A stretch of 63,011 nucleotides of DNA, the filler included, from Reticulomyxa filosa (lineage: Eukaryota > Protista > Foraminifera), in assembly GCA_000512085.1 (NCBI GenBank). It is 19 parts of 19 records of this genome, joined end to end, with 100 filler letters (N's around TTAATTAATTAA, not from the genome) between each part and the next. Parts side by side here need not be neighbours in the genome. Positions count along the whole stretch, not along the records: positions 1 to 20,174 come from ASPP01020293.1; 18 more parts are not named here. One strand, given 5' to 3'. Position 1 is the first letter of the stretch. Each line of letters begins with the position of its first letter. The position numbers were made by a program, and so were the translations under genes. Shown piece after piece: positions 1,665-20,174 of the stretch. The notes under the pieces are model-generated. The model was given only the letters and a program-made list of their open reading frames with translations. It searched no databases and had not been told where the DNA came from.

Positions 1665-4091
1665 ATGCAGCGGCAATCTAATCAAGTGTCGTCTCCAACA
1701 TCTCCAGTGTCGAAACGTCCTCCAAAATTTGTAAAAATAAAGGACTTGACACCAACGTCAGGTGGTTTTTCGTTGATTGGGAAGATTGTGTTTGAGAAGA
1801 AAATATTAGACCGATTGAATATTGATGGCACCCGTAAATGTCTTGTGGAATTCCTGATTGGTGACAGCACAGGTATGATATACTTGTATTTATTTCACAA
1901 GAGAAGGAGGGGGGTAAAAAAAGGGGTTATAACTCATAAATCAATAACTTGTGTGAATGGCTTACTCAACCAATTAAAAAAGGTTGTGTAATGTTGACAT
2001 TGCGAAACGAGCAAATTTCGAACATAAAAGTGGGCGAAGTGTTGATACTGCGAAATGCCCGTGTGCATATGTTATTCCAAGGTTACATGCGCGTAGTTAT
2101 AGATAAGTGGGGCGCAATTGACAAAGTACCTAGCAGCAGCATGTCGGATGACATAAACTTTGAGTGCAACAAAAGCGATGTGGAGTACACATTGCAATCT
2201 CCCAAAGAGCACGCACGTGCAACCCGAGAAAACAACTATCGCAATCGCAAGCGTGACCGTGTCTCCCATCACGACACCGAATCGACATCGAAGCAGCAGC
2301 AGCAGCAACGCCCGCGCATTGTTAGAAAATTGCATTCATACGAACAACTGCTTAGCCATACCAATGTCACTACCTGTATTTTCATCAGAGGGAAGTTTAA
2401 AAAAGAAGACATGGCAAATGCTTACCGTTTCGCTAGAATGGAACATCCTTACTTGCGAATGGGGATTCGAAATGCAGTTCACTTTTTTTTTTTCCACCCT
2501 CCCCCCCCCCTTTTTCAAGACAAAGTGAAGACATGCCTTGTGTTTGACTTTTGTAATGCGAGTAGAAAGACAGTGGCAAAGAGTTTGTTGAGATTGTGAC
2601 AAATAAAGACGACACGGTGCCATTAAAGTATGCGACAATAACGGACGAAAAGGAATTTGAAGACGAAGAGTTTTGGATCAAGACAATGGACACAGTGGCC
2701 AATGGCGCCTACGACCACGAAACAGGTACATGCTTCCTCGAGTTGTACAGTAATCCCGGATTGACAAAGCACTGTCTCATCGGTGTTGTTAATCACGCCC
2801 ACATGGATGCCCGTGGCAACTTTTGTCTCTACGATTCCATCTTCACTTACTTGGGTCAAATAGTCGATCATCAAACAAAGATGAAAGGCAACATGAAAGA
2901 CCCCTTTGGCTTCATTTCGTTAAATTTAACTACATAAATATTTATACGTATACACATATATATACATTACTATTTTTTTTTTTTTTTTTTTGGGATTAAA
3001 CAGTGTTCGCTGTCGTCGCCCATTTGTGGATATACTGAGCCGAATATTCACCAACTACGAAAAGGATCCCAATCGCTATCATATGCCACAATTGCACGAG
3101 GAATACGTAAAGCCTCTTCCGTCAAAACCGCGAGACAAGGACCAATCGCCAATTGGCAAAATCAGCTTCCACACGTTTGAGTGGGACGCACAAAGTACCG
3201 AAGAATTTCGACTGGCTTGTCGCAAACATGGTGCCACGGTGCAAGGCGCGTTCTCAGCTGCCTGCATTGTGGCCGTCTGTTGTTTGAATAACTTCCAATC
3301 TCAAGAGCCTACCAAGATAAGACTGATCGTCCCTTGCCAAATGAGCCCGCATGTCGATCCGCCTGTTAACAGCCACGATTGTGTTTGCGGTGCTGCGGCC
3401 TTAGTTTTTGAAGTCAGCATTTCTCTTGGTATTAAACAAAATCAAATAATGTCTTAGCATTGTGTGTTTGTTTTTTATTCACAGTCCCCTTCTCTCCCTT
3501 TTTTTTTTAAAAAAAAAGGAAATGATCCTGTTTACTACACAAAAATAGGTACACCACTGTGGGAACTGGTGCAAAGTTGTCACAAGGAAATGCAAGAATC
3601 AGTCGCCTCTGGTTGTACTTTCGAGTGGATCTCTGCAATAAATGGAAAGGCTTTCCGTCCGTCTGGTGAAAAGATTACCTTGCCAATGGTTACCACAATG
3701 TGCAGCAGTATTGGTGTCAATTGCATGCGGGCTAACTATGGAGAAGGAATTGAAATTAAAGGGGTTAAAATGGTCGGCTCGGCTTATAAAGGCAATGTTT
3801 CTGCTACGCATGCAAGTACAATGGCACATGTGCATGTTAGTTTGTTAGTTTATTTGTTTTTTGTTTAATACCACGCAACAGTTATTATATACCTTTCTTT
3901 TTTTTTTTTTTGAAAAGACCTTCGATGGAAGACTGAACGTGTCGATTGAATACAATTCGCCAGGACTTTCTGAAGAAGAAGCGACCAAATATTGCTCTGC
4001 ATATCATGCTGTGTTGAAAACCTTTTTGAAGCCTGAAACTGATCATCCATTGTCCATAGGTGATATCTTGAAGAAATTTGGAAGCAAGTGA
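1665..4091 (+). CDS. Fusion of an N-terminal At4g28440-type OB-fold (SSB-like) and a C-terminal condensation/PapA5/alcohol-acetyltransferase-like HxxxD acyltransferase
   Basis: ATG at 1665. Predicted introns 1873-1982, 2477-2565, 2919-3003, 3429-3548 and 3836-3917 all keep frame. OB motifs: FVKIKDL, GDSTGCVMLTLRNEQ, LILRNARVHM, MRVVIDKWG. Acyltransferase motifs: RKLHSYEQ, EHPYLRM, NHAHMDARG, ACRKHGATVQGAFSAA, HTFDGRLNVSIEY. Confidence 0.8.
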
Positions 4092-4614
4092 ATATTGCAT
4101 AGAAATTTCTCTATTGTCTGAGTATGCTTGTTCGCTTGAGTATGCTGTATTTGTTTTAAAATTTCGACACTGATCCTGACTCAAAATAATAAAAGTTTGG
4201 ATATTTTACTGGCACAAAACTTTTTAAAAAGGTCAGTTTTGAGCCTTTTCTTGCAAGAAAAAAAAGTAAAAAATGCTCTCACTGCTTAATCTAATAAGTA
4301 GTCACTTACATTACAATATCTGGGACAAAACGCTACAGCCTTTTTTCTTGTGTACATAAATGCAATGTTTAACGCCTTTTTTTGTATGTCAAGGATTATG
4401 AAACTTGAGACCTTGTATCTTGAGCATCTTACAATGATACACTTCCCTCTTTCCTGAAATCTTACTATTTTAAGTAATCTTATATATAGCACTATTTAAT
4501 TATTACTGGTAAGGTGTTGAATCATAAAAATTTTAATCTTGATGGTCTGCCATTTTTAAAGGAAGAGCCGTGCGCACGTGCAAGGAAAAAAACTAGAAAT
4601 TGAGTTTATAAAAA

Positions 4615-5954
4615 ATGATAAAAGTGCTGGTATTGATCTGTATTATATTGACAATTATATCAAATGGAAACTGTGTCAATGTGATTGAAATGCACAAAGC
4701 GGGCAAGAACTTGCATAAAAAAGTGTCCTCCTCGAAAATATTGTCTCGAGACAGGGATGGCGACTGTTACTTTCCAGGGTTTTGCAACATAAACATCTCA
4801 CATTGCAACATAGACCGAGTACCTCTAAAAGACCTTTCTTACGAAGAATTTGTGGCCAATTATGTGGACAAAGAAAGGCCAGTGATATTGGAATTGAATG
4901 ATCTGAGTGAAATGCTGGACAATAGCAGTGGGATATTTGAGTGGCAGTCGATGATAAGTCGAGTGCGAAATAAACAAGATTTTGAGCATTTGGTAGATCT
5001 AGAATATAAACATAGCACTCCATATGAGCGTAGTCAAACCTGTGACATCCATGCATTGGAGGATCGAAAGACAGTAGTGTACAAAGAGATTATCGATAGG
5101 ATCTATAAAATTCCGGAAATTTTGGAACACATTGATATTTTTAATCATTTGATTGGATATTTATCGACTGTCGATGGATCCCTATTGGGTTAATTTTTTT
5201 TGTTTTTTTAAACTTTTTAAATCCACGTTTTAAGTATATGTACATATTATATGAAGGCAATAAATGGGTAATATTTGGAAACACTGGAAGTGGTGCCCAA
5301 TTTCACTTTGATTACTATTTGACTTCTTTTTGGAATTTGGTTGTGACCGGGAGCAAATATTGGTTGTTGCTATCGCCGGAGGTTGTGGAAAATGTGCTGT
5401 TCCCTGATGTTAGTGATTTGCATAAGGTCATAAAAATGCCATTGTGGCAGTTTTATCTTCAAATCTATCCTTACTTATCCCTTGTGTTACATGACGCACT
5501 TGTTGCACCCGATAATAAACAACTACACACTCTTAAAAACAAACCTTTTGATACCAATATTTATGAATGTTTACAACGCCCTGGAGACATATTGTATGCA
5601 CCTTCCAAATTTTATCATTCCACTTTTAACTTAAACGCCACTTTATCCGTTTCCAGAAATTTGATTACGTATCAAAATTTTCAATTTGTTTTTGACTTTA
5701 TCACCTCTTTGCAAGCAATGCACTCTGAAGACAAAAAAGGAAATAATGTCGGCATGAAACATGCCATCGAATTATGTGCTGCCTTGTTTCACTTTAACCA
5801 AACCATGTTCAAACAGACAAATTGTTTTACCAAGTCTTTTTTGCAAAGGCTTGGCTCTTTTCCGGTTCAAAAAAATGGAGTCACCAATGCTGACTACTAT
5901 ATTCAAGCTTTAAATTTTGCAGCTCAAGCACCAATGTTTTCTTCTTTTTTTTAA
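4615..5954 (+). CDS. JmjC/cupin 2-oxoglutarate oxygenase, JMJD8-like, with signal peptide
   Basis: Hydrophobic N-terminus MIKVLVLICIILTII. CNIDRV...LSYEEFVANY..RPVIL is JMJD8-like. Also GSGAQFHFD, GSKYWLL and CLQRPGDILYAPSKFYHSTFNL. One intron, 5189-5256. Confidence 0.85.
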
Positions 5955-6574: not shown

Positions 6575-7944
6575 ATGGATCGAGAGAAAAAGAACGACGG
6601 AGATGAAAAAGGTATGCAAGAAATTTATTTTCCAACTTCAAAAGTTTGTGTAGGCTTTTTGTTGTAATCATTTCACTGTCCCTTGTTTTGTTTTACTGTA
6701 GAACAAGGTGAAGATACCGGATTATCAACAACGGACACTTATGTTCAAATATTCTTAATTCAAGTGGAAATTGCAAAAGCTACGAATTTGGTGAAAGCAG
6801 ATGTATTTGGATTATCAGATCCATACTGTCGGGTTAGCAAATTCATTATAATAAATAATTTACCTTAAAAAAAATTAATAATACAATGAATGATTAGGTT
6901 TCAGCTCTCCGTCAAACATACACAACCAAAACAATTATGAAAACATTGAATCCAGTGTGGAATGAAAACACGCAGTTTATATTTTTTAAAGACCCCAAAG
7001 AGTTATCATTTAATGTATGGGATTGGGATCGAGGTACCAAGCATGATCCAATCGGAGAGTGCACTGTATCCCTGGAAGGGCTTTTTGATAATGGCCACGC
7101 TGGTATTATTTAAAAAAAGATGAAAGTAACAATAACAAAAGCATGTTCGACTAAATTTGTTTTGATGTATTCTTTTTTTATAAAACAAATACAATCAAGG
7201 TTTTTCAGGACCAATCGTATTGAAAAAAGTAAAGACGGGAGAATTGTTTGTAACAATTAAATGTCGTAAACTGCTCCCCATCGAATTGGAAATGCGGGCC
7301 ACTCAATTACAAAATTTAGAAAAACAACAACAACATACTCTAGCGGAACAAGGAAAACAGATGGAAGTATTGACAAAACAAAACAATACGTTGACTGAGG
7401 CAAATCAATCATTACAAGAATCAATTGGTTCGTTAACAACAAGCAAGAAAATTTTGGAAGATCAAGCATCACAGCTGAAAACTCGGAGTTCCGAATTTTT
7501 TTTTCTGTTGTTAAATAATGAACAATATTATCAAGCAACAAAAACCCTGAATTTCTAAAAATAGAGCAAGAACTGGAAGAAGAACAAAAAAAATTATCTC
7601 AAGCCCGTGATGTGGTGCAAAAGGAATATGAAGACTTAAACAATCAATGTTTTTTTCTTCAAAGCACGTTACAAGAGGAACAAGATATTTTAAGTGATCT
7701 GGCACGTGAAAATGAGGAACTTAAAAGTTCACTGAAAAAAGGTACTAGTGAACTCGAAGAAGTGACTCAAGAAATTGCAAAATTTCAGCAAGATATCGAA
7801 ACCTCGAAACAAAAAGAAATTCAAGTATCTGCACTTGCATCTACAGATGCCAATGATGATGAAGCCAAAGCATCTGCGCCATTGATTAATGCGAAAGCAA
7901 ACTCTGCCAAGGATACTAACTGTCAATGTTGTGCTGTGCTTTGA
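6575..7944 (+). CDS. C2-domain plus coiled-coil protein with C-terminal CaaX motif
   Basis: Spliced (introns ~6612-6701, 6833-6897, ~7083-7199, ~7488-7564). C2 motifs KATNLVKADVFGLSDPYC, TKTIMKTLNPVWNE and VWDWDRGTKHDPIGE. Heptad-rich middle region. Ends CQCCAVL*. Confidence 0.85.
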
Positions 7945-8225: not shown

Positions 8226-11200
8226 TTAATTTTTTGATCGGCTTTCCTCGCTTTCATCTATTAATTCGTCAATTATTTCGCCCACAACATCGTCCATGTT
8301 GCTTCTCATGGTTTGCGTTACGACTTCGTTACTTATTAAGGTCTTCTTTTCGTCTTGGTCGTTCTTTAAGATTTGATTTTCACCTTTTCCTTCATCTTCA
8401 TCTTCATCATTCATGAGTTCATCCACTAAATCTTCTAGGTTATTACTTCGCACGGTTAGGTTTTCATTGTTTTCATCTTTGTCGGCTCCCAATAGCATCT
8501 CATCCACTAAATCCTCAATATTGCCCCGGAAGGTTACATTGTCGTTTGGATTACTTACATTACTTGGATTGTTTATTAAATTGTTGCCGGTTGTATTTTC
8601 CTTCTGGTCACTGGATATAACCTCTTGGGCTAAATCTTCAAGGTTCGTGTCAGACGCCACTTTGTCAAATGCCTTTTGATTACCAGTCTGGTCTGTCCCC
8701 TGCGCAAATGCTTGATCATCGGACAATAACTCGCTCATCAAACGATCATCTTCGGCAGGAGCAGCACCATTTCCAATGAGTTCTCCGTCTATCTTTCTCT
8801 CTGTTGTGTCATTTGACATAATCGGCATTTTTCCAATATCGCCTGAGTCCTGTTTTGAACGCTTTCTTTGTTGCTTGTTGCTCTCATTGCTTTGTAATCT
8901 CCTAATCATTGCATGTTTCTTTAAGAAGTCATCTCGTACCGTTTCGGCCATTTTCACGGTATCAGTGAAAACACCTCCTGGTGGTAGTGCTCCTTCCGGT
9001 GGAGGAGCTTTTTTCAATAATGTCAACTGCACATTGATCAATGGTATTGTAACTTTCTTACTTCCATCATTGTCAATCATTAAGCCAGTCTTTGTATGTT
9101 TACGTACGATTCGTTTATGAGGAATAGTGCTTTCCGATTGCAACGTTTCCTTAGGCGATTTGGTACCCTTTGGTGATTTATTTGATTCCCTTGGTGTGCC
9201 AATATCCTCGCTCAAAGTATTATCTTCATCGATAAGATCAGTTGACGTCTGACCTTCGAGAGTTGGAATATATGGCAATTTATCCAAAAGTAAAAGATAT
9301 ATGAAATAGGGTGTCAAAAAGAATGGTCCCAATGCTAATATAGCTTCAATAAGGTGAAAAGCAGAAGGGGCTTCCAGTTTGATATTGAAGAGAGTAATAG
9401 CCAATGCGATAAACCAAACATAAGCTTCGCCAATATTTGTGGAGTGATGTGCCATTGGATTAACAAACAATTGAATCGCCACAATTAAGCCTACAATTAT
9501 TGCAAGCACTGTAGATGTAACTTCAGTGCTGCTAAAAGGTAAACTGGAGACAAAGACAATAGCAAACCTTCGTAATAATCCATACGAAACATGCCACCAT
9601 GTATTTTTGCGGAACATCAATACCAAAGAAGGATAACGAATTTTCAAGTATAAATGCCCTCCAACGCGATACTCTCGCAACATGACAAAGTATAAAAATA
9701 TTGGTACAGTTACTATGACAAACAACGCCGCGTAAGCAATGAAATGCCATTTGTCATAGCATTCCACATGACCAACATAATACATGCGTACACCATAGCC
9801 AGATACGGGCCTACAATTGGTCAATTTAATCAATGCACTTGCAATTTGTGCGTACAACGTTATAAACACGTTCCAAATAGCGCTGTTGAATCCATTCTCC
9901 CAACGGACAGGCAAGGGACGCCCGTTCAATTTGATGTATTTGTACGACATCATACCAACGTATACAATCAGTAATTCAACGAACAATACCAGTGAGGGCA
10001 ATAAATCCAATGACAATTTTTGTCGTCCTGACATATTCTTCAACACGCACTCACCTGAACTGCTGGAAGAGAAAAAGTCCATGCGAAAGTTGGCCGCTCT
10101 CGCCAAAGGCTCAATAATTTTTGATGTTTGCTGGAAGGTTAAAAATGGAATCAATTGGAAGACAAAGAGTGCTGACTTTGTCAAATAGGTTTCAATTGGC
10201 ATTGGTGCTTTTTGTGCTTCACGCCATCCAGATCGGAAAAACAGTCCAATCATTGCTATTCCCAAAAACACTGCCAATAAGATTTGCTTTGTTAAACCAG
10301 AGTTATCTGTGCATATAGCGCAATCGCCAGAGGGAGAAGTTGTTTCCGACAACCCTTCCGTGCATCTACCACAGAGTGGTACGGAGGAATTTCTTCCGGT
10401 CGCGCACAAATAACTCGTGTTTAAAAAGTTGCAGCCATTGGTGTTGTTGCAGCAATATCCAGCAGGACAAATTTGAGTGGCCAAGTAACCGTTGTCATTT
10501 GCAATGGCATACCAATTCAATTTCACTGTGACAAAGTTATAACCTTCACACTTGCATCCCAATGGACATTCCTTACAAGGATTAGTTTTGAGGGTGTATT
10601 CTCCCAAACCGCAGGCCTGGCATGTGAAGATCCCTTCTCCCAAATTTTGTTGAATTTTTTGATAATAACCCGGAAAACAATTGATCACTGTCACTTTCAC
10701 TATTTGCGTTATCGCCACTCCGTTTGGATCCACCACAGAGGCATTACCAGTTTTTCCAACACTTCCTGCATCGACAAGCATGGGGAAGACCCATGACAAG
10801 TTCTCTCGTCCTGGAGCAGTGGTTGTCACTGTCACTGGTGGTACTCGTTCCAGTTTAACAGTATACTTGACAGATTTCAAAGGATTGCCAAAAGCATCCC
10901 ATCCAAACACTTGCATGAGCTTGTACGATCCTGGCGTCATATTGAAATAGAGGATAGGTTTATACAACTTACTCTTGTCAATCGAGGTATTGAGCGAAGC
11001 TTTTTCACATGGTCCACTAAAATCGACTGTTGTGGTTTGAACACACAAATACTTGACACTAGAACTAAAAGTTGCACAACTGCTGCTCGATTTGCAAAAT
11101 CCAGATAATAATGAATTAGGATCAGTGATTGGATTATCTCCCTGGACAATTTCAAAAAATCCATCAGGAGCCGCCACCGAAGCATTATTGTCATGATTAG

Positions 11201-14200
11201 AAGCGTTTAGGAACAGAGTACAATCGGCTTCATGATCAGAAGTCTTGCCATAGAGTTTCCAATAGAAAGCTCCTCCACGACTGGCAATATTTTTTGTCAA
11301 ATTGGTGTAATAGAAACCCATACACATTTGATAAGGTGCGACTTGGGACAATTCTCGATAATGTCCCCCTCCGTAACTACCGGCAACATTTCCTTGAAAT
11401 AGAACCTGAGATGATGAAAACACAGCATTCTGCATCCAAACACCTCCACCGTCTTGTTCTGCGATATTTTTGGAAAGTACGGTTCTGACCAATTGCAAAT
11501 TGCCCCAGTTTACATATGCTCCTCCTCCGTGGATAGATGCATTATTACCATATAACAGACTGTCTGTGAATCGAATGACTGATTTGAACGTGGTTTGGAC
11601 TTGACTGTTAAGTGCCATTGATACGCCTGCACCGTATTTTGCGCTGTTGTTCGTCATCGTTACTTTGTTGAAATCCACAGCGCCAATAAATGGCAAATCT
11701 GATAGACTGCTGGACACTCCAAAGTATCCACCAAATGCCCCTCCGTATTCACCTCCACTGTTATAGTCGAACGAGGTATTAAACACGCCCACACTCAAAT
11801 AGTTTTCCATATTCCATTTTCCTTGAATATTCATTGCTCCACCGTTCTTACCTGCCTTGTTTTCTTGGAACACACAGTTATCAATTTGGACATTGGGCGC
11901 AATCCAATTGTACAAACGTTTTATAAGCACTTTATAAGGCTTTGTCGAGGTTTTCCTTTGCACGGCCAAGCAATAGCTTCCTTTGGTCAAATTTTGAATA
12001 GTAAGTGAGACTGCTTTACTGCATTTTGTGCTGGAAGAAGGGGCAAATGAAATCCAATGTTCTTGATTTGTAGATGTAACAGAGATATTTGTTTGATTGA
12101 GAGGTATCAAAATGTAATCTTCATAAAACAAGCAAAAGGAGTTAAGTGTTTCAAATACTGTATCCATTCCTAAGTGCAAGTTTGCGCTTCTTGGGCTGTA
12201 CTGTGTGATATTGCACAAGTTCCAAAATCGCTGAATCGTGTCTTGCTGTGAAGAATTCACATGATTTAAGCCAAACAATTTGAAAGGTTGATCAAATTCG
12301 CTTCGATACAGTTGGAAACCAACTTCCTTTTTTTTGGAGGTCGGATTGGTGTTGGATGCGGTTGGAGCTGCAACAGTAGGTACTGTTGTTGGCAATGGGG
12401 TCGTTGGTTGTTTGTCTTTAACCATGTCAATGGTATAATTGGCTCCTGTCTTAATCACAAAATTATGAGGAATCTTGGTTGCTACTCGGATTGGGATATT
12501 AACATGTACTACAGCAGGTGTTGGTTGCTGCGTTGGGCTAATGGTTGGTGCTTGTGTTGGGATTTGTGTGTAATGTACTAATGAATTAAACGTCATCGAA
12601 TATGATCCTTCAGAGCTTGATTGCAATTGATACAAAACAGCATTCGACAACATGGTTGTAAAGACACTTTGTTCAAGATTTTCATATGGAGTTTTCGTGT
12701 CATTCACTTCGACTGTTGTAATAAAGGTAATGGTCTTGTTGGAAACAATTCGATAAACAAAACGCTGTGTTTTGCCTGATAACAGTTCATTCAATGAGCT
12801 AGAAATCTTTGATTCGAGTGAAGCAAAGGCTGACTGATTGATATTGTTCATCGTTGCATTGATGTCGATTCGTTGGACAGAAGACGAGGATTTGGTTGTG
12901 TTGTGCACGTCCGAATTACTAAACACAATTGCACGCGCTCCGAAATGATAAAAAGATTCGACTAATTTCACCCAATTACAAGTAGATGGAAGACGAAGGA
13001 AAGTTACAACTTTGGTCAAATCCGAATCAGTGTTTGTGTAGTTGCATCCTTGATCCAATATCAATATCTTCATTGGGACTTTATGAAAAGCGTAATACTT
13101 TGTTCCCAATTCAAAAGGTTCAGAAGGGATGAGTTCAGCACTGGTGACATTATAAAATTTGAGTTTGATATAGCTTTCATCGTATCCCCAATCTTGACAA
13201 ATACTCGATTGACAGATAACAGGAGCATATGTTCCATCGAATGCTTTACAAACAAAAGGTACCAATTCGGATTGATGGAGTATATTGCAATAGGAAGAAT
13301 TACTATTCCAATTAGTAAATTCATCATTTACATCTGCAACGTGGTAAGCTTGGTTACTTGCAACAACTAATGGCAATGATTGGCCCTCAAAGACTTTGTT
13401 GAAACTCAAGGATACATTCAAAGCGTCGATCGTCGAATTGGAATTCAAATTTCCCTGCACCAACGGACAGCGGGAAATGATATCCAAAGCATTATTTAAA
13501 ATGGTGGTATCGTTAGTGTCATTCCAAAAATATTGCCAATTCAATGTACTTGACAGCGAAGGATCAGCCCATAGGCACAACACAGCAAGCATATGTTTCA
13601 ATATATCACTGCCACCCAATCGCTCTGGATAACAATAGCGACCGCTGCGGATACATTCAGTGTTGTTTGTTTTTGGATACATCGAAAACACATTAGAGAA
13701 AGTAATATCTACAACCAATCGATTATCCATTAATTTAAATAGTTGATTTTTCATGTCCAATAAAAGATTTGATCCACTGCTGTCGTGGATTGTGGCTCCC
13801 ATAGTAATACTTTTGTAAACATTTTTCCAAGATTTTGGATTGCAAATTTCAATTGTTTCAGAAGGTCCATAGTCTCCGTGTGAAGGCGAAATAAATGTGT
13901 GATTATTCCATACTATCGACCATGTTCCATCTCCATAGCCTAAACCATCCCCAAACGAATCTTTAATTGTAAACTGTAAACAGGTTTCATTTGTTGAAAT
14001 GCAAGTTGAGTTTGCATAGTTTCCTGTGTGGCTAGTGCCATTGTTTCCTGTCAATTTCCATGAAATATCCCCCGTGTGAAAAGTGTCTCCCGTGATCAAC
14101 AATTGAATGTTGCACGGCTCTCCGTCAATAGTTTCTACTAGTCGCCTTGATGAGATAGATGGCGGAGATGTCGGGCTAAATGTTGGAGGAGATGTTGGAG

Positions 14201-17200
14201 GAGATGTCGGGCTAAATGTTGGAGAAAATGTCTGTTTGGTAAATGCGCTTGTGTCCGTCACGTTCACATCAATTGTATCAAAGTCAGTACTAATATATAA
14301 ACATCCACCACCAAGTCCGCATTGATTGTTGATGAATTTACTATTTTGTAAATGCAAAACGTCATCGCTGCTTATATTGCCATTTTTTTCAAATATCATA
14401 TCGGCCACCCGTGTAATGTACATACATCCTCCATTTCCATTTACGGCTTTGTTATTGAGGAACGTGCAATTATCCATTGCCACAGTCGAGTGTTCTGCCC
14501 ACATATTACCACTTAATTGTGTCACACTGTTGGATACAATGACATTTGTCATTTTCAAGCTCGAATATTGGAAATGTCCATTACCAGCGTATCCTTGGCA
14601 CTTATTTCCATCCAAACTATTTTGTTTTTTTGTGATCCCATTTTTTTTATTGATTTTTACCTATTTTTTTTTACAAGAGATAATTCAAAACTGGACATTT
14701 TCTATCTCTAGTTGAGTGCATTTTGAAGACATAGCTGCAATTGCCACAATTGCGCTATTGTTTCCGATGAATGTATTTTGAATTCGAACGAATGCCTTGG
14801 GCTTCATGTCTGCACTGCAACTCCAAAAAGCACCTACACTGGAAGCAGCTCCATCATTGCTTGAAAATTTGCTTTTGTCGATAAACAGGTTAGTATTACC
14901 AAAATTGTTATCCATGAAAAATCCACCCATGCCAAGGGCCAAATTGTTAACCGCTGCACAATTAGCAAATTTTATTAATGTTGTTGTCTGATCAATGCTA
15001 GTTGAACCAGGTACAACTCCAATTAAATCGAATGATACATTCAATTTTTGACTTTTACCCATGTTCATGTAAGCAATCAATTCAGTTGCATTTAACACTA
15101 ATTGCAATGCAGTTTCACTCGCAAGAGCGCCTTGTTTAATATCAAACACTACGATATGCGGATATCCAAGTCCATATTGAGAAATATTTGCAATTTTTTG
15201 ATTATTAGAACTGATCAGCTGCAAGTGACTATCGTCCCAAGAATAGATTTTGTTAAATAACAAGTCGGTATCACTTGACAAGATCAAATACAGCCTTTGG
15301 ATATTTCCACCATAATAGCTGTCAACATTTATATCGAAAGGATATGTCAGTGCTGTCTTGTTAACTGACAACGGTAAACTAGGAGATGAATACAACAAGT
15401 CCACATATTGATGAGTGTTGATATAGGATATCGATCCAAACACAGCTTGATTGCTATCAAAACGATTATTGGTGAAATGAACTTGTTGTTTGTTAGGATC
15501 AGATGTAACTCCCAATCCAAAAGCTCCACCACCGACAACACCTTTATTAGAAAGCCATTTAACACGATCTATGTCCAGTGTACTTGCATGTTCTGCGTAC
15601 ATACCACCTCCAATTTTTCCCTTGTTTTTGGAGAATGTTGACTGTTTTATGCGAATATCTTCGACGCAACCAACATACATAGCACCTCCATATTCAGTTG
15701 CATAATTATTTTCACTAGTAGCCTCATATATTTCATGTGCACTTCGCAAGGCCATGGCACCACCAAAAGTACTATTGTGCACAGAAAAGTTGGTCTTCAT
15801 AATTTGGATTAATCCTGTTGCCGTTGATATACCACCACCTAATTGGGCTTGGTTACCGAAGATGTTACTTTGAACTACTCGTGTGGTCATGTTTGAACTG
15901 TAGTCCTTGCATGTACAAGCGCCCAAAGTGTAAGGTAAATCAGATCCTTGACACTCAAATGAAGTGATAAATATGGCACCTCCTTGGGATCCTCCATCAT
16001 TTGTTTTGAATTCGGAGTTCATAAGATTTAGTTGTCCCTATGTGTAAACATAAACAATTGTACAACGTAGATAATGAAGAAAGCAAATATAACAATAACA
16101 AAAAATTTTTAGCATTATATTCACTTAACTTTTGAAAGACTTTCAGTTAGCCACGCAATAGCACCACCTCCATGAGTTTCATCAAAGGATGTCTCACGTA
16201 TACTATTACTTGTAAACAGTGTTTTTTCCACTAGCATACTTATCGTACTTGATTCATTCAAGACGATTTCATTGCCGCTGTCGTATTCCAACCAATGTCT
16301 CGAAACCGCCAGTGCACCTCCATATTTGCTTGCCTTGTTGTGAAGAAATTGAATACTCTCAAAATCTATCATTCGAGCTGCTTCTGGATGCACTGTGTTC
16401 ACTAAGTGACATATTTTTGTTGATGTATTATAATGTCCTAGGTCCTTTCTAACTCCTCTTGCATGTTTTTTATTGTAGACGAAATAGTAACAAAGTACAA
16501 ACATAGCATATACCTTGGAATTGTAAAAATTCATATTTGGTTGCCTCGACATTTATAAGCAAATTTAGAATATGAATAGCTCCACCACCATAAATGGCAG
16601 TGTTAGAATCAAACAATGTACTATTGTTTATAAATGTGTTACAGTCTGTTTGACTTCTCAATTCGGAAATTGCAATAGCACCACCAAAATCAGCACTATT
16701 ACTTTGTATATTTAATCGTTGCATCTGTAAACAAGTGCTGTGAGCAACAATTCCACCACCACGATATTGAGCAGTGTTATTGGAAACACTGCCATTAACC
16801 ATTTTCAACACATAACAGTTGGACACAATTCCTCCTCCCAAACCAAATGGTGCGCTATTCAAATTGAAATTGCTATTTTCTATGTAAAATACTGGATTCA
16901 TTTTTGTTGAAGTGTTGGAACATTGATCCGGATTATGAACAAGAGCTCCACCACCAGCTACCGAAGCATTGTTTCCGCTAAATACTGACTGTTTGGAGTC
17001 AATTGATATTCCTTGTAAAAACATGCCACCTCCATAAGGAGCAATATTCCACTGGAAATGGCTAATTTGGACCGTAACTTTTCCAGATATGCTTTGATTC
17101 TCTCCCACATGTTCATTTACTCCAGGCACAATTTTTACAAAAGCTCCTCCTCCATACCCACTGGCAGTGTTTCGAAGGAAAGAGGAGTTTACAATGCTGA

Positions 17201-20174
17201 CAACAGGGCGAATATAAATGGAATTATTGTAATAAAAGGACAGGGCACCTCCCAAAACCGCATGATTTGTTTCAAATATGGACGAAAGTACTCGATACAC
17301 ACTAAAACTATTATTGAAGCTGCTATCAAAAACGCAGCCATAAGTACCACCAACATTACTTTTAAACAATGACTCGCTAATTGTTACATCTGCCACTTGG
17401 GTCATCAAAAACGACGATATGTTTCCCTGTATTTTTCAATCAAAAAACAAAAACATCCAATCACTATTTCACTTTTTTAAAATCGTTTTCTTAACTTGAT
17501 TATTGCCTAACGAACTCGATTTCAGCAACAACACAGAACAATAGGCGTAAATTATAGCAGTGGAATAATTATTGCTATCGAAGGTGCTACCAGTAACAAT
17601 AAAATGTTGTGCATACGTTGACGACGTATCAAGGTCCAACAGTGAACAATCATTTCGTGAAAACGTGTCCAAAATAACTAAACTGCTGGAATTTTCCTGC
17701 ATTTGTACATTGTCGAGCCAATGACACGAATAAAGTTCGATTTTGTGAGAGGCAATACCATTGAATAAATAATACAAAACAGTTCCTTTGTTCGATTGAC
17801 TAGTTACGCTCGTTAAAATTAATTCAGTCAAAAAAACGTTTTGTGTGTTTGTTGTTTCCTCGTCTTCTACAATGCCAATAACATCCGTATTGTTAGTGAA
17901 AAACGAATCCGAAATACTTATATTGGCCAACTTATTTTTGTTTCGATTCAAATTATTAAGTAAAATAAGCGGCTTGGAAGTGAAGTGATTAAGAGAATGT
18001 TGAAAACGACAAAGATGTAACGAGCTGTTAAATAACCATGGATGGTAGGTAGGAACATTAATTATCAAAGCGGTTTGTAAATGGTAATAAGAAAAAGTGC
18101 ACTGAGAGAAGTAAACTTGATGAGCAAAGGAAGCATGAGTATCAGTGCCACTTTCAAAAGAAAAAGTAATTTTAGAGAAATTACTGGAAGACCAAATAAT
18201 TTGATCATAAGATTGTACATTCATATTAACACCAAGATTACTCCATTGCGATGTAAATTGACAATTAGTTGCAGTTAATTTTGTTCCAAAAGTACTAGAA
18301 CGAGTGTCATTTAAATAAATTACATCACTTCCATAAGTAATAATATTACTTAATTGAATATTACTTATTTGAGAATTAACTATTAAGCGATGGTTATTAA
18401 TTGTGGATGAAGATAAAATTAATGAAGCATCTTTTATATTTATTAATGAATCACTTACATTATTACTAGTAAAAGTATTTTGTAATGCATCTAATAAAGG
18501 AGTATATGTTGATAAATCAGGTCCACTCATTTGAATTATGTTCCATACAGTATTTTCTGAAAATATATTAGTTGTTAATTGGACAACTGGACCCAAAATA
18601 CATGCATTTGACCAATGATCGCTTCTCCATTTAATTATCCATTCAACTTTATTGTTTTCAAAAATATTATCAACTAATAATATACGAGGTTGAGAAATAT
18701 CATTGAAATTATTTGCAATTAATTTCCAGTCCATTACTGCAATTTCTCCAATCATACTCAAAAATGATGATTTTTCGATTTTTACCCAAGGTCGATATGA
18801 GTTATTTACTAAACTAAAATCAATGTCTGTCAAATGTAATGACGCACTAGTAGTGAAATCTTTAAATATCACATTATCAATCCATATATTTGCGGTTGTT
18901 GGTTGAGTTGACATTTTCTTTCCACTTGCCCCAAAAGACATGTTTACATAAGCTTGTGTAAAATTACTTGCATTAATTAATATTGTATCTGTTGGTTGAA
19001 TGTTGTATATTCGGATCATTTCCAATGATGATGATAATGATTCGTCATTAAATGTGCAATGATGAATTTTGATACTCATTGAATTAGTCTTTGTAACATT
19101 CACTCGTTTTATATTTAATCCATGAACAAATGATTCGAATATCATTCCTTCCATTGAAATACTATTGCAATCTTCACAATACAAATATTCCGAGTTATCT
19201 TCTATTAACATGTTATTATGGACTGTATCAATTTTTCCATATAATTCAATCCATTTATTTGTTTGTAAGTTGTTCCATTTGTTATTATTTAATAAAAATG
19301 TTACTGGATTTCCATTTGTAGTTAATTGGATTAAAAATGGTGATGCATGATTATTTTTATAATTTTTAAATGTGTTATCCACAAAATCAACGTGAGATCT
19401 TCTATTATTTTGGTTATCACTATACCAATTTCCAATCATTGTTGTTGTTTCAAATGTATTGTGTGATATATTCAATTGTATTGATGTGTTTTCCGCTTTT
19501 GTTGTTTGATGAAAGAATAATGACGTTGTGGATACTTCTTTAAAAACATTGTCCATTATTATCGCATTAATTGTTTGATTTTTAAATGCTGTATCATCTT
19601 GTTCTAAATAAATTCCATAATGCACACGTAAACTGTCGATAGCGTTATTGGTAATTTTGATGATATCTCCACTACCTACGTCGTGAGCATAGACAAATGC
19701 GATTGCAGTGTCATTTTTTTCTGTATTCGTGTCTATGCATGTTTCGACTGTGCTCAGGTGCGACAAACTTTCGGTGCTTCTTTTGATGTCTATGATGGAA
19801 GGCCCATAGTTAGTCGAAATATATGTGTTTTGTGCCATTTTGAAAGTGGTATCAATGAACATAAGACATTGTGTTGCAAACGTGTTGCTGATACTGTCTG
19901 TACTGCAATTATTGTTGATTAATTGCAATTGTTTCATCCATATTCTGTGGTTCATGAATCGCATCAAATAATTACCTCCAGATCCAATTGCATTACTTAT
20001 AAAATTGACTCGCTCCCATTCCATAACACCTGTAACATCCCATTGATCCGTGTTGGTTGGACAGGCAAGGGTTGATGGAATTCCTTCCCAACTGGTGTTT
20101 GACTGTTGACTGTCAAAAAGTGTCCCAATGTTATTTTCAAATAAAGTTGAATTTATTTTTAACCAAGTGTTTGT
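8226..20174 (-). CDS. Giant (~3,880 aa, 5'-truncated) Pmp-repeat/beta-helix surface protein with VSR-like and PA modules, Cys-rich region and ~8-9 TM C-terminal domain
   Basis: Five ORFs join in frame through GT-AG introns (17495-17427, 16513-16438, 16129-16038, 14691-14617). Many FxxNxA..GGA(I/L/M) repeats, PT/SP linkers, a CxPGYY..CxxC..GEY Cys-rich block, multiple hydrophobic helices and an acidic tail. Confidence 0.8.

Follow-up and report, generated by a model that had tools for sequence, protein, structure and literature searches.

An At4g28440-type OB domain joined to an HxxxD condensation/CAT-fold enzyme in a predicted gene of Reticulomyxa filosa

Enzymes of the HxxxD, or condensation, fold most commonly transfer an acyl group from acyl-coenzyme A (acyl-CoA) to a small acceptor. 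A different activity has been described for AzeD, a stand-alone condensation-family dehydratase in which the first His of the HHxxxDG motif is replaced and the second is essential (10.64898/2026.07.17.738954). The At4g28440-type OB proteins are described as an uncharacterised family with Asgard relatives (10.64898/2026.10.28.762692). Their Arabidopsis member At4g28440 (F20O9.120; structure 1WJJ) is given in a table of UV-crosslinked poly(A) RNA capture with a log2 enrichment of 10.8, and the same table records it for two of three earlier studies (PMC7226388 Table S1). In the related OB fold of the Sulfolobus single-stranded DNA-binding protein (SSB), bases have been reported to stack on W56, W75 and F79, and RNA to be bound on the same face (PMC5346138). 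Here we describe a predicted gene of the foraminiferan Reticulomyxa filosa, at positions 1665 to 4091 (+) of a 63,011-nucleotide stretch of DNA (the window), that joins members of both families: At4g28440-type proteins are usually small and stand-alone, whereas the R. filosa OB domain runs into a 460-residue enzyme. The window is made of N-joined parts, and the gene lies wholly within the first of them (1-20174, ASPP01020293.1). The initial annotation knew of no described example of such a protein, and no description of an OB fold-HxxxD enzyme fusion came to light in searches for open-access papers and preprints.

One reading frame and a second copy

The spliced product comprises 646 residues with zero internal stops, and is encoded by six exons linked by five GT..AG introns of 82-120 nt each. 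It starts with an OB domain of the At4g28440/Ssb-like type (1710..2200, residues 16-142, interrupted by intron 1), continues with a linker (2201..2314, residues 143-180) in which 10 of the 38 residues are Lys or Arg and none is Met, and ends with an HxxxD condensation/CAT-fold domain (2324..4079, residues 184-643, exons 2-6). The initial annotation had placed the junction of the two domains within exon 2 (1983..2476), and this, as well as its exon borders and two-domain architecture, was borne out. The frame is open from 1982 to 2476 and passes from the second half of the OB domain (with DKWG and NKSDVEYTL; Pfam PF21473, E 1.6e-12) through the basic and Q-rich linker to the 51 initial residues of the enzyme (RKLHSYEQ...EHPYLRM). 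The stop-free frame to which it belongs, 1940-2596, holds both domains, with profile E values of 3e-23 for the OB domain and 1.2e-13 for the enzyme, and hhalign places the 59 residues encoded by 2300-2476 at the beginning of the stand-alone enzyme family (probability 98.4, E 8.8e-15). In-frame ATG codons flank the linker at 2141 and 2411, with none in between, and the sole ATG within 2150-2330 (2178) is out of frame; an internal start in the linker is ruled out, as there is no in-frame Met there. A hidden intron was also ruled out, since none of the 68 candidate GT..AG pairs in 2111-2330 resembles the introns of the gene: their longest A/T runs are at most 4 and their G+C is 0.43-0.59, against runs of 7-19 and G+C of 0.16-0.43 in the five introns of the model. 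The G+C content of the linker is 57%, versus 32% in the unmasked background, where 21 of 2356 windows of 120 nt combine an open frame with a G+C of 50% or more, an upper bound because short exons stay unmasked.

The strongest support for the predicted fusion being real is a paralogue, ETO12648.1 (P0003), a partial R. filosa protein from a separate 2366-base contig, which was found by a full scan of cluster representatives. It matches residues 16-201 of the deposited counterpart of the gene, RFI_23395 (660 residues, for which the database already gives PF21473 and PF16911), at 55%, and exon 2 at 79 of 159 positions (E 1e-58). ETO12648.1 has the same order, with an OB domain (PF21473, 40 bits) followed by a linker that is 13 residues shorter, in frame and not basic, and then by the same enzyme start; identity between the two copies amounts to 78/127 in the OB domain, 7/25 in the aligned linker and 28/48 in the enzyme start, and the ETO12648.1 model has intron-like residues at the position of intron 1. 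In a tree of 74 of the 119 OB domains, the bootstrap of which was not fully settled, the two fused OB domains form a single clade (support 100/99, stem 1.08). Since the same fusion is found on another contig with a diverged linker, a chimeric contig, a concern raised in the initial annotation with respect to the linker, or a chance read-through is unlikely; conserved flanks on both sides of a diverged, in-frame linker fit selection on one polypeptide. The fusion, although its model is predicted from sequence, is very probably a genuine gene. Three further R. filosa fragments match residues 235-350 (P0006, 66/115 identical), 350-494 and 532-642; two of the three start and stop at exon borders of the 646-residue model, and together they may be parts of the same second gene.

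Properties and relatives of the two domains

The OB domain belongs to the Pfam family PF21473 (68.6 bits, cut-off 24), and its closest solved structure is 1WJJ (profile E 6e-18; Z 16.2, root-mean-square deviation (rmsd) 7.2, 130 aligned), in agreement with the At4g28440 type assigned initially. Fold and conserved residues are in common with that family: the motifs GDxTG, RN, DxWG and the closing NxSxxEY are present, and the family-conserved R77, R93, R96, F101, R106 and W112 are retained. Some of the relatives end in an RG-rich tail (RG-rich repeats occur in 14 of 124 OB-only relatives), where the R. filosa protein has the enzyme instead. Of five Arabidopsis loci taken as members of the family, three, annotated as being of this type, are present in the RNA-capture table (PMC7226388; PMC4942612). 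Sulfolobus SSB (1O7I, 2MNA) and human SOSS-B1 have a related OB fold (profile E 4e-12 and 2e-5), but the stacking residues W56, W75 and F79 of the former correspond to R77, R96 and F101, so that only the Phe is kept; in most of 122 relatives the first stacking position holds Arg (82) or Lys (20) and the second Lys (72) or Arg (19). Membership of the SSB subfamily is ruled out by a score of 75.9 bits against NCBIfam NF005049 (SSB equivalog), the cut-off of which is 188. Thus, of the label "ssDNA-binding" (single-stranded DNA, ssDNA) given to this domain in the initial annotation, the fold stands and the ligand is the weaker part: because two of the three ssDNA-stacking aromatics are lost, both to Arg, and the closest solved relative was crosslinked to poly(A) mRNA, RNA would be, by analogy with the relatives, the likelier and better-supported ligand.

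The enzyme half scores 47.5 bits against PF16911 (cut-off 30). No further Pfam family besides this one and PF21473 lies above its cut-off in the protein, the adenylation and carrier domains of a nonribosomal peptide synthetase (NRPS) module being among those not found, and no membrane-spanning stretch is present in the 646 residues. The structure model was made for the deposited 660-residue protein, which is without 35 conserved residues, from 40 aligned sequences, with a mean predicted local distance difference test score (pLDDT) of 79; the missing residues account in part for its low confidence at 166-215. Over about 430 residues the model has the two-lobed condensation fold, with Z 28.4-19 to many members and an Atlas template modelling score of 0.78 for residues 185-621. 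Structural matches include NRPS domains (Z 22-23), PapA5 (Z 21.8, rmsd 3.2, 314 aligned), Tri3 (Z 20.4), SgcC5, WS/DGAT and PapA2; for the five named proteins, entry titles or known roles point to acyl transfer. PapA5 (1Q9J), Tri3 (3FP0), WS/DGAT (6CHJ) and PapA2 (6AEF) share the CAT fold and the catalytic His/Asp with the R. filosa enzyme, and none of these four entries is titled with a nucleic-acid-binding domain. The fold predicted initially for the C-terminal part was hence recovered; the assignment as "PapA5-like acyltransferase" holds for the fold and fails for the subfamily, membership of which is ruled out by 20 bits against NCBIfam NF006787 (PapA5, cut-off 396), and the nearest structure is the dehydratase AzeD. 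PF07247 and PF07428 (fungal alcohol acetyltransferase/Tri3) gave no Pfam match, while in the Atlas neighbours PF07247 is found on 15-57% of members.

The active-site motif NHAHMDARG (2791..2817) lies in exon 3, and ACRKHGATVQ and TFDGRL, also expected downstream of the junction, are in exons 4 and 6, respectively. H311 (2794-2796) and D315 (2806-2808) form the HxxxD pair recognised at the outset, which aligns with H124 and D128 of PapA5 and with the AzeD motif and is present in 18/18 relatives; the PapA5 comparison draws on PMC6996325. Of the strongly conserved columns of the enzyme family, 35/42 are kept. Judged by its relatives, acyl transfer is the likely chemistry of the enzyme half.

This half belongs to a family of about 430 residues, the named hosts of which, among the clusters looked up, are Lokiarchaeum, a Sigynarchaeota genome, Coccomyxa, Ostreobium, Brachionus, Basidiobolus and Clastostelium. 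Its stand-alone members are 19-31% identical to the R. filosa enzyme in the alignment and have the NHxxxD motif in common with it; in contrast to the R. filosa protein, 32/32 enzyme-only rows, several of them fragments, are without an OB domain. In the tree, P0002 groups with the Reticulomyxa rows (100/100), and the ENA proteins P0004 and P0065 are sister to this clade; P0004 begins at profile position 12 and is apparently cut at its start, so that an OB exon upstream of it is possible. Whether the domain has its origin in common with the archaeal-type rows was tested (approximately unbiased test, p-AU 0.465); shared origin being neither rejected nor shown, no gene transfer is claimed, and a 64-column tree gave no resolution. 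Of 251 genomes in the Lokiarchaeum phylum, one has a strong match (E <=1e-40). The neighbours of a stand-alone relative in Lokiarchaeum ossiferum L001 (6001-13213) encode a DNA methylase, a polysaccharide deacetylase, SIS, a PfkB kinase, a GH2 glucosaminidase, DUF72 and a flavodoxin-ferredoxin. The deacetylase, SIS, kinase and glucosaminidase genes may form an amino-sugar cluster; the link is weak because a second copy in the same genome (L004) and L002 have other neighbours, and no clear pathway emerges from the gene neighbours of the relatives.

Among 159 proteins examined (158 fetched and the 646-residue model), 124 have the OB domain only, as had been anticipated for this family, 32 the enzyme only and three both (the 646-residue model, P0001 and P0003). 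Of its 603 matches at E <=0.001, the full scan listed the best 150. Further fused proteins were sought by word-based searches with exon 2 (290-2000 residues, 136 candidates), P0001 (363-1155 residues, 4900 candidates) and an exon 2/P0003 profile (90-406 residues, 1007 candidates); from each of these, one R. filosa protein came back. No relative was found by DNA scans of JGI metagenomes and viral contigs, nor by a genome scan with the archaeal-type alignment; a genome scan with P0026 gave two loci. Among the proteins and DNA searched, the predicted fusion is so far confined to R. filosa. It is a new domain architecture and not a new kind of system, since both folds are known and the record is already public, the domain pairing being visible in the automatic annotation of RFI_23395. 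The same OB type was also seen, in single records, behind a PGK fragment (P0063) and behind a weak NZF zinc finger (P0078), combinations that may be gene-model artefacts.

Possible roles of the fusion

The role that we favour, tentatively and at somewhat less than an even chance, is that of a soluble acyl-CoA-dependent acyltransferase tethered to or regulated by RNA. The OB domain would hold the soluble enzyme on single-stranded RNA through the variable linker, or RNA would regulate the enzyme, and the acyl group of acyl-CoA would be transferred to a small molecule, lipid or sugar, on a hydroxyl or an amine. RNA would serve as anchor or switch rather than as substrate, since variation in linker length and charge suits a leash better than a fixed hand-over. 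A single fusion event would have come first and gene duplication afterwards. Prediction of a complex between the two domains, given as separate chains and without alignments, scored 0.00 and is counted neither way. Several observations weigh against an RNA-tethered, CoA-dependent enzyme. At the positions of R77, R96 and F101 ETO12648.1 carries Glu, His and Leu/Pro, and as the basic linker is missing too, its OB domain may not bind RNA; ETO12648.1 is moreover a predicted protein, the transcription and splice model of the gene at 1665-4091 is likewise a prediction, and a long stem (1.08) lies beneath the fused OB domains. For the stand-alone enzyme relatives, no tested function was found in the literature looked at, and no OB gene is among the neighbours scanned at one archaeal locus. 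Concerning the enzyme itself, a structural comparison with 48,161 representative chains puts AzeD first (8S6L; Z 28.4, rmsd 2.9, 343 aligned, 16% identity), and the family profile ranks likewise (AzeD E 3e-21, PapA5 2.6e-7). The Arg of PxNxR, found in 20/20 stand-alone relatives, in AzeD and in PapA5, is Ser466 here (3344-3346). This Arg may bind the CoA phosphates, as in related folds; if so, the use of CoA is in doubt. It has to be considered, then, that the fusion is genuine and its halves independent, the OB exons having been rearranged before the enzyme and the OB domain kept for a job of its own, for expression or for folding. The fusion is seen in R. filosa only, its linker is unconserved in length, sequence and charge, and both families stand alone elsewhere, the OB type occurring also beside unrelated domains (PGK, P0063), all of which would suit independent halves; a passenger would, however, be expected to decay or vanish, and the OB domains of the two copies are 61% identical, against 43-58% for the enzyme pieces. 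Because the OB domain is at least as conserved between the copies as the enzyme pieces, it appears to have been kept after duplication, and independence of the halves is on the whole unlikely.

The resemblance to AzeD could instead mean that the tethered enzyme is a dehydratase, lyase or isomerase that acts on a free small molecule through His311. Not only is AzeD the best profile and structural match, but the first His of HHxxxDG is replaced in both proteins (by Pro in AzeD and Asn here), as it often is in the C_standalone clade (xHxxxD) to which AzeD belongs, and a reaction independent of CoA would agree with the missing Arg. AzeD differs in being a discrete bacterial protein of an NRPS cluster, whereas the R. 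filosa enzyme is eukaryotic and OB-fused. Against an AzeD-like activity, identity to AzeD is just 16%, AzeD itself retains the arginine of PxxxR that the R. filosa enzyme is without, and no NRPS or polyketide synthase (PKS) gene is found among the open reading frames scanned on the same contig; as far as the AzeD paper goes, dehydration by other members is left open (10.64898/2026.07.17.738954). Such an enzyme is improbable here. The initial annotation raised the acylation of a nucleic-acid-bound substrate or the use of a tRNA-linked donor. Such a part for RNA in the chemistry, where the OB domain would bring an aminoacyl- or acyl-tRNA as donor and so replace CoA or a carrier protein, or where an RNA would be acylated on a ribose hydroxyl, would be in line with an RNA-binding OB family, with relatives such as PapA2 that acylate sugar hydroxyls (PMC6996325), and with the Arg of PxNxR, which is missing from its usual place in 5/5 covering rows of the Reticulomyxa clade and its sister and hints at a changed donor. 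Besides the fusion, these rows are P0007 and P0002, where an Arg stands one place later, P0004, where it stands two places earlier, and P0065; yet P0004 and P0065, which have lost the Arg too, are not known as fused, the linker is variable, no tRNA-binding family in Pfam matches the protein, and the literature search found no such enzyme, which makes RNA as a reactant very unlikely. Equally slight is the chance of a condensation/CAT-fold enzyme acting directly on RNA, in which the OB domain would replace the carrier or CoA handle and supply His311 with an aminoacyl-tRNA donor or with an RNA acceptor for acylation, and the lost Arg would mark the change of donor. It is also very doubtful that the gene is an artefact, produced by the merging of two genes or by an assembly error, or a dead copy that is not expressed. 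The gene is known from sequence prediction alone, the assembly is fragmented, and the +1 frame across the linker is open too (2157-2528, 123 codons, one ATG at 2178); a crude codon model gives that frame 13.1 bits versus 9.3 bits for the coding frame, which scores near zero over 2315-2476. Neither the OB nor the enzyme profile matches the +1 frame, however, and it is probably a shadow frame, while the same junction on a second contig at about 55% identity, a Met-free linker with no intron-like stretch and too short for a promoter, and 646 codons without stop or frameshift argue for one intact gene.

Gene model, neighbouring frames and significance

Exon 1 (1665..1872) contains the start codon and the first half of the OB domain (residues 1-69; OB profile E 1.3e-15) and is followed by intron 1 (1873..1982; GT..AG, 110 nt, phase 1), which splits the GDxTG motif and has the same border in the deposited model. 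Intron 2 (2477..2565; GT..AG, 89 nt) is replaced in the deposited model by a longer intron that removes conserved residues. Downstream of exon 3 (2566..2918), exon 4 (3004..3428) encodes the PapA_C region (PF16911, E 6.4e-9), and exon 5 (3549..3835) and exon 6 with the stop codon (3918..4091) complete the gene, all on the plus strand. Compared with the 646-residue model, RFI_23395 has 35 fewer residues at the end of exon 2, which are conserved in the enzyme family, 10 more at intron 4, 9 more at intron 5 and a longer end; the enzyme profile gives 373 bits (positions 3-430) for the 646-residue model and 281 bits (38-430) for the deposited one. RFI_23395 is apparently mis-spliced at four sites (2375-2571, 3519-3548, 3836-3917 and after 4085), and as deposited, without one conserved strand and helix, it probably would not fold properly if expressed. 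The relative P0002 (996-base JGI contig, 105/217 identical to the gene product) runs through junctions 4/5 and 5/6 uninterrupted, in accord with the 646-residue model, and is without the extra residues of the deposited one. The corrected 646-residue gene model matters in its own right.

About 520 bases 3' of the fusion gene and on the same strand lies a JmjC/Cupin_8 hydroxylase-type gene (4612-5954, +), the hydrophobic start of which suggests a signal peptide, followed by a C2 domain (E 3e-15) and coiled-coil-like frames at about 6700-7941 (+). On the opposite strand, a stop-free frame of 2144 codons (8229-14660, -) has 49 Cys and five hydrophobic stretches at residues 1456-1791, and gave no match in Pfam, NCBIfam or solved structures. 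The frames at 14688-16037 (-) and 16473-17435 (-) were grouped with it, an upstream frame having a weak match to the Chlamydia PMP repeat, and the three are possibly a single, very large surface or membrane protein.

The predicted fusion joins two families without assigned function in one protein, which has been retained through gene duplication, and its range of one species so far limits the reach of the finding. It hints that an At4g28440-type OB protein can act together with an HxxxD enzyme. Should RNA act as the anchor or switch, the fusion would amount to a hard-wired RNA control of metabolism; should RNA or tRNA be a reactant, it would bring a new chemistry to the condensation fold.

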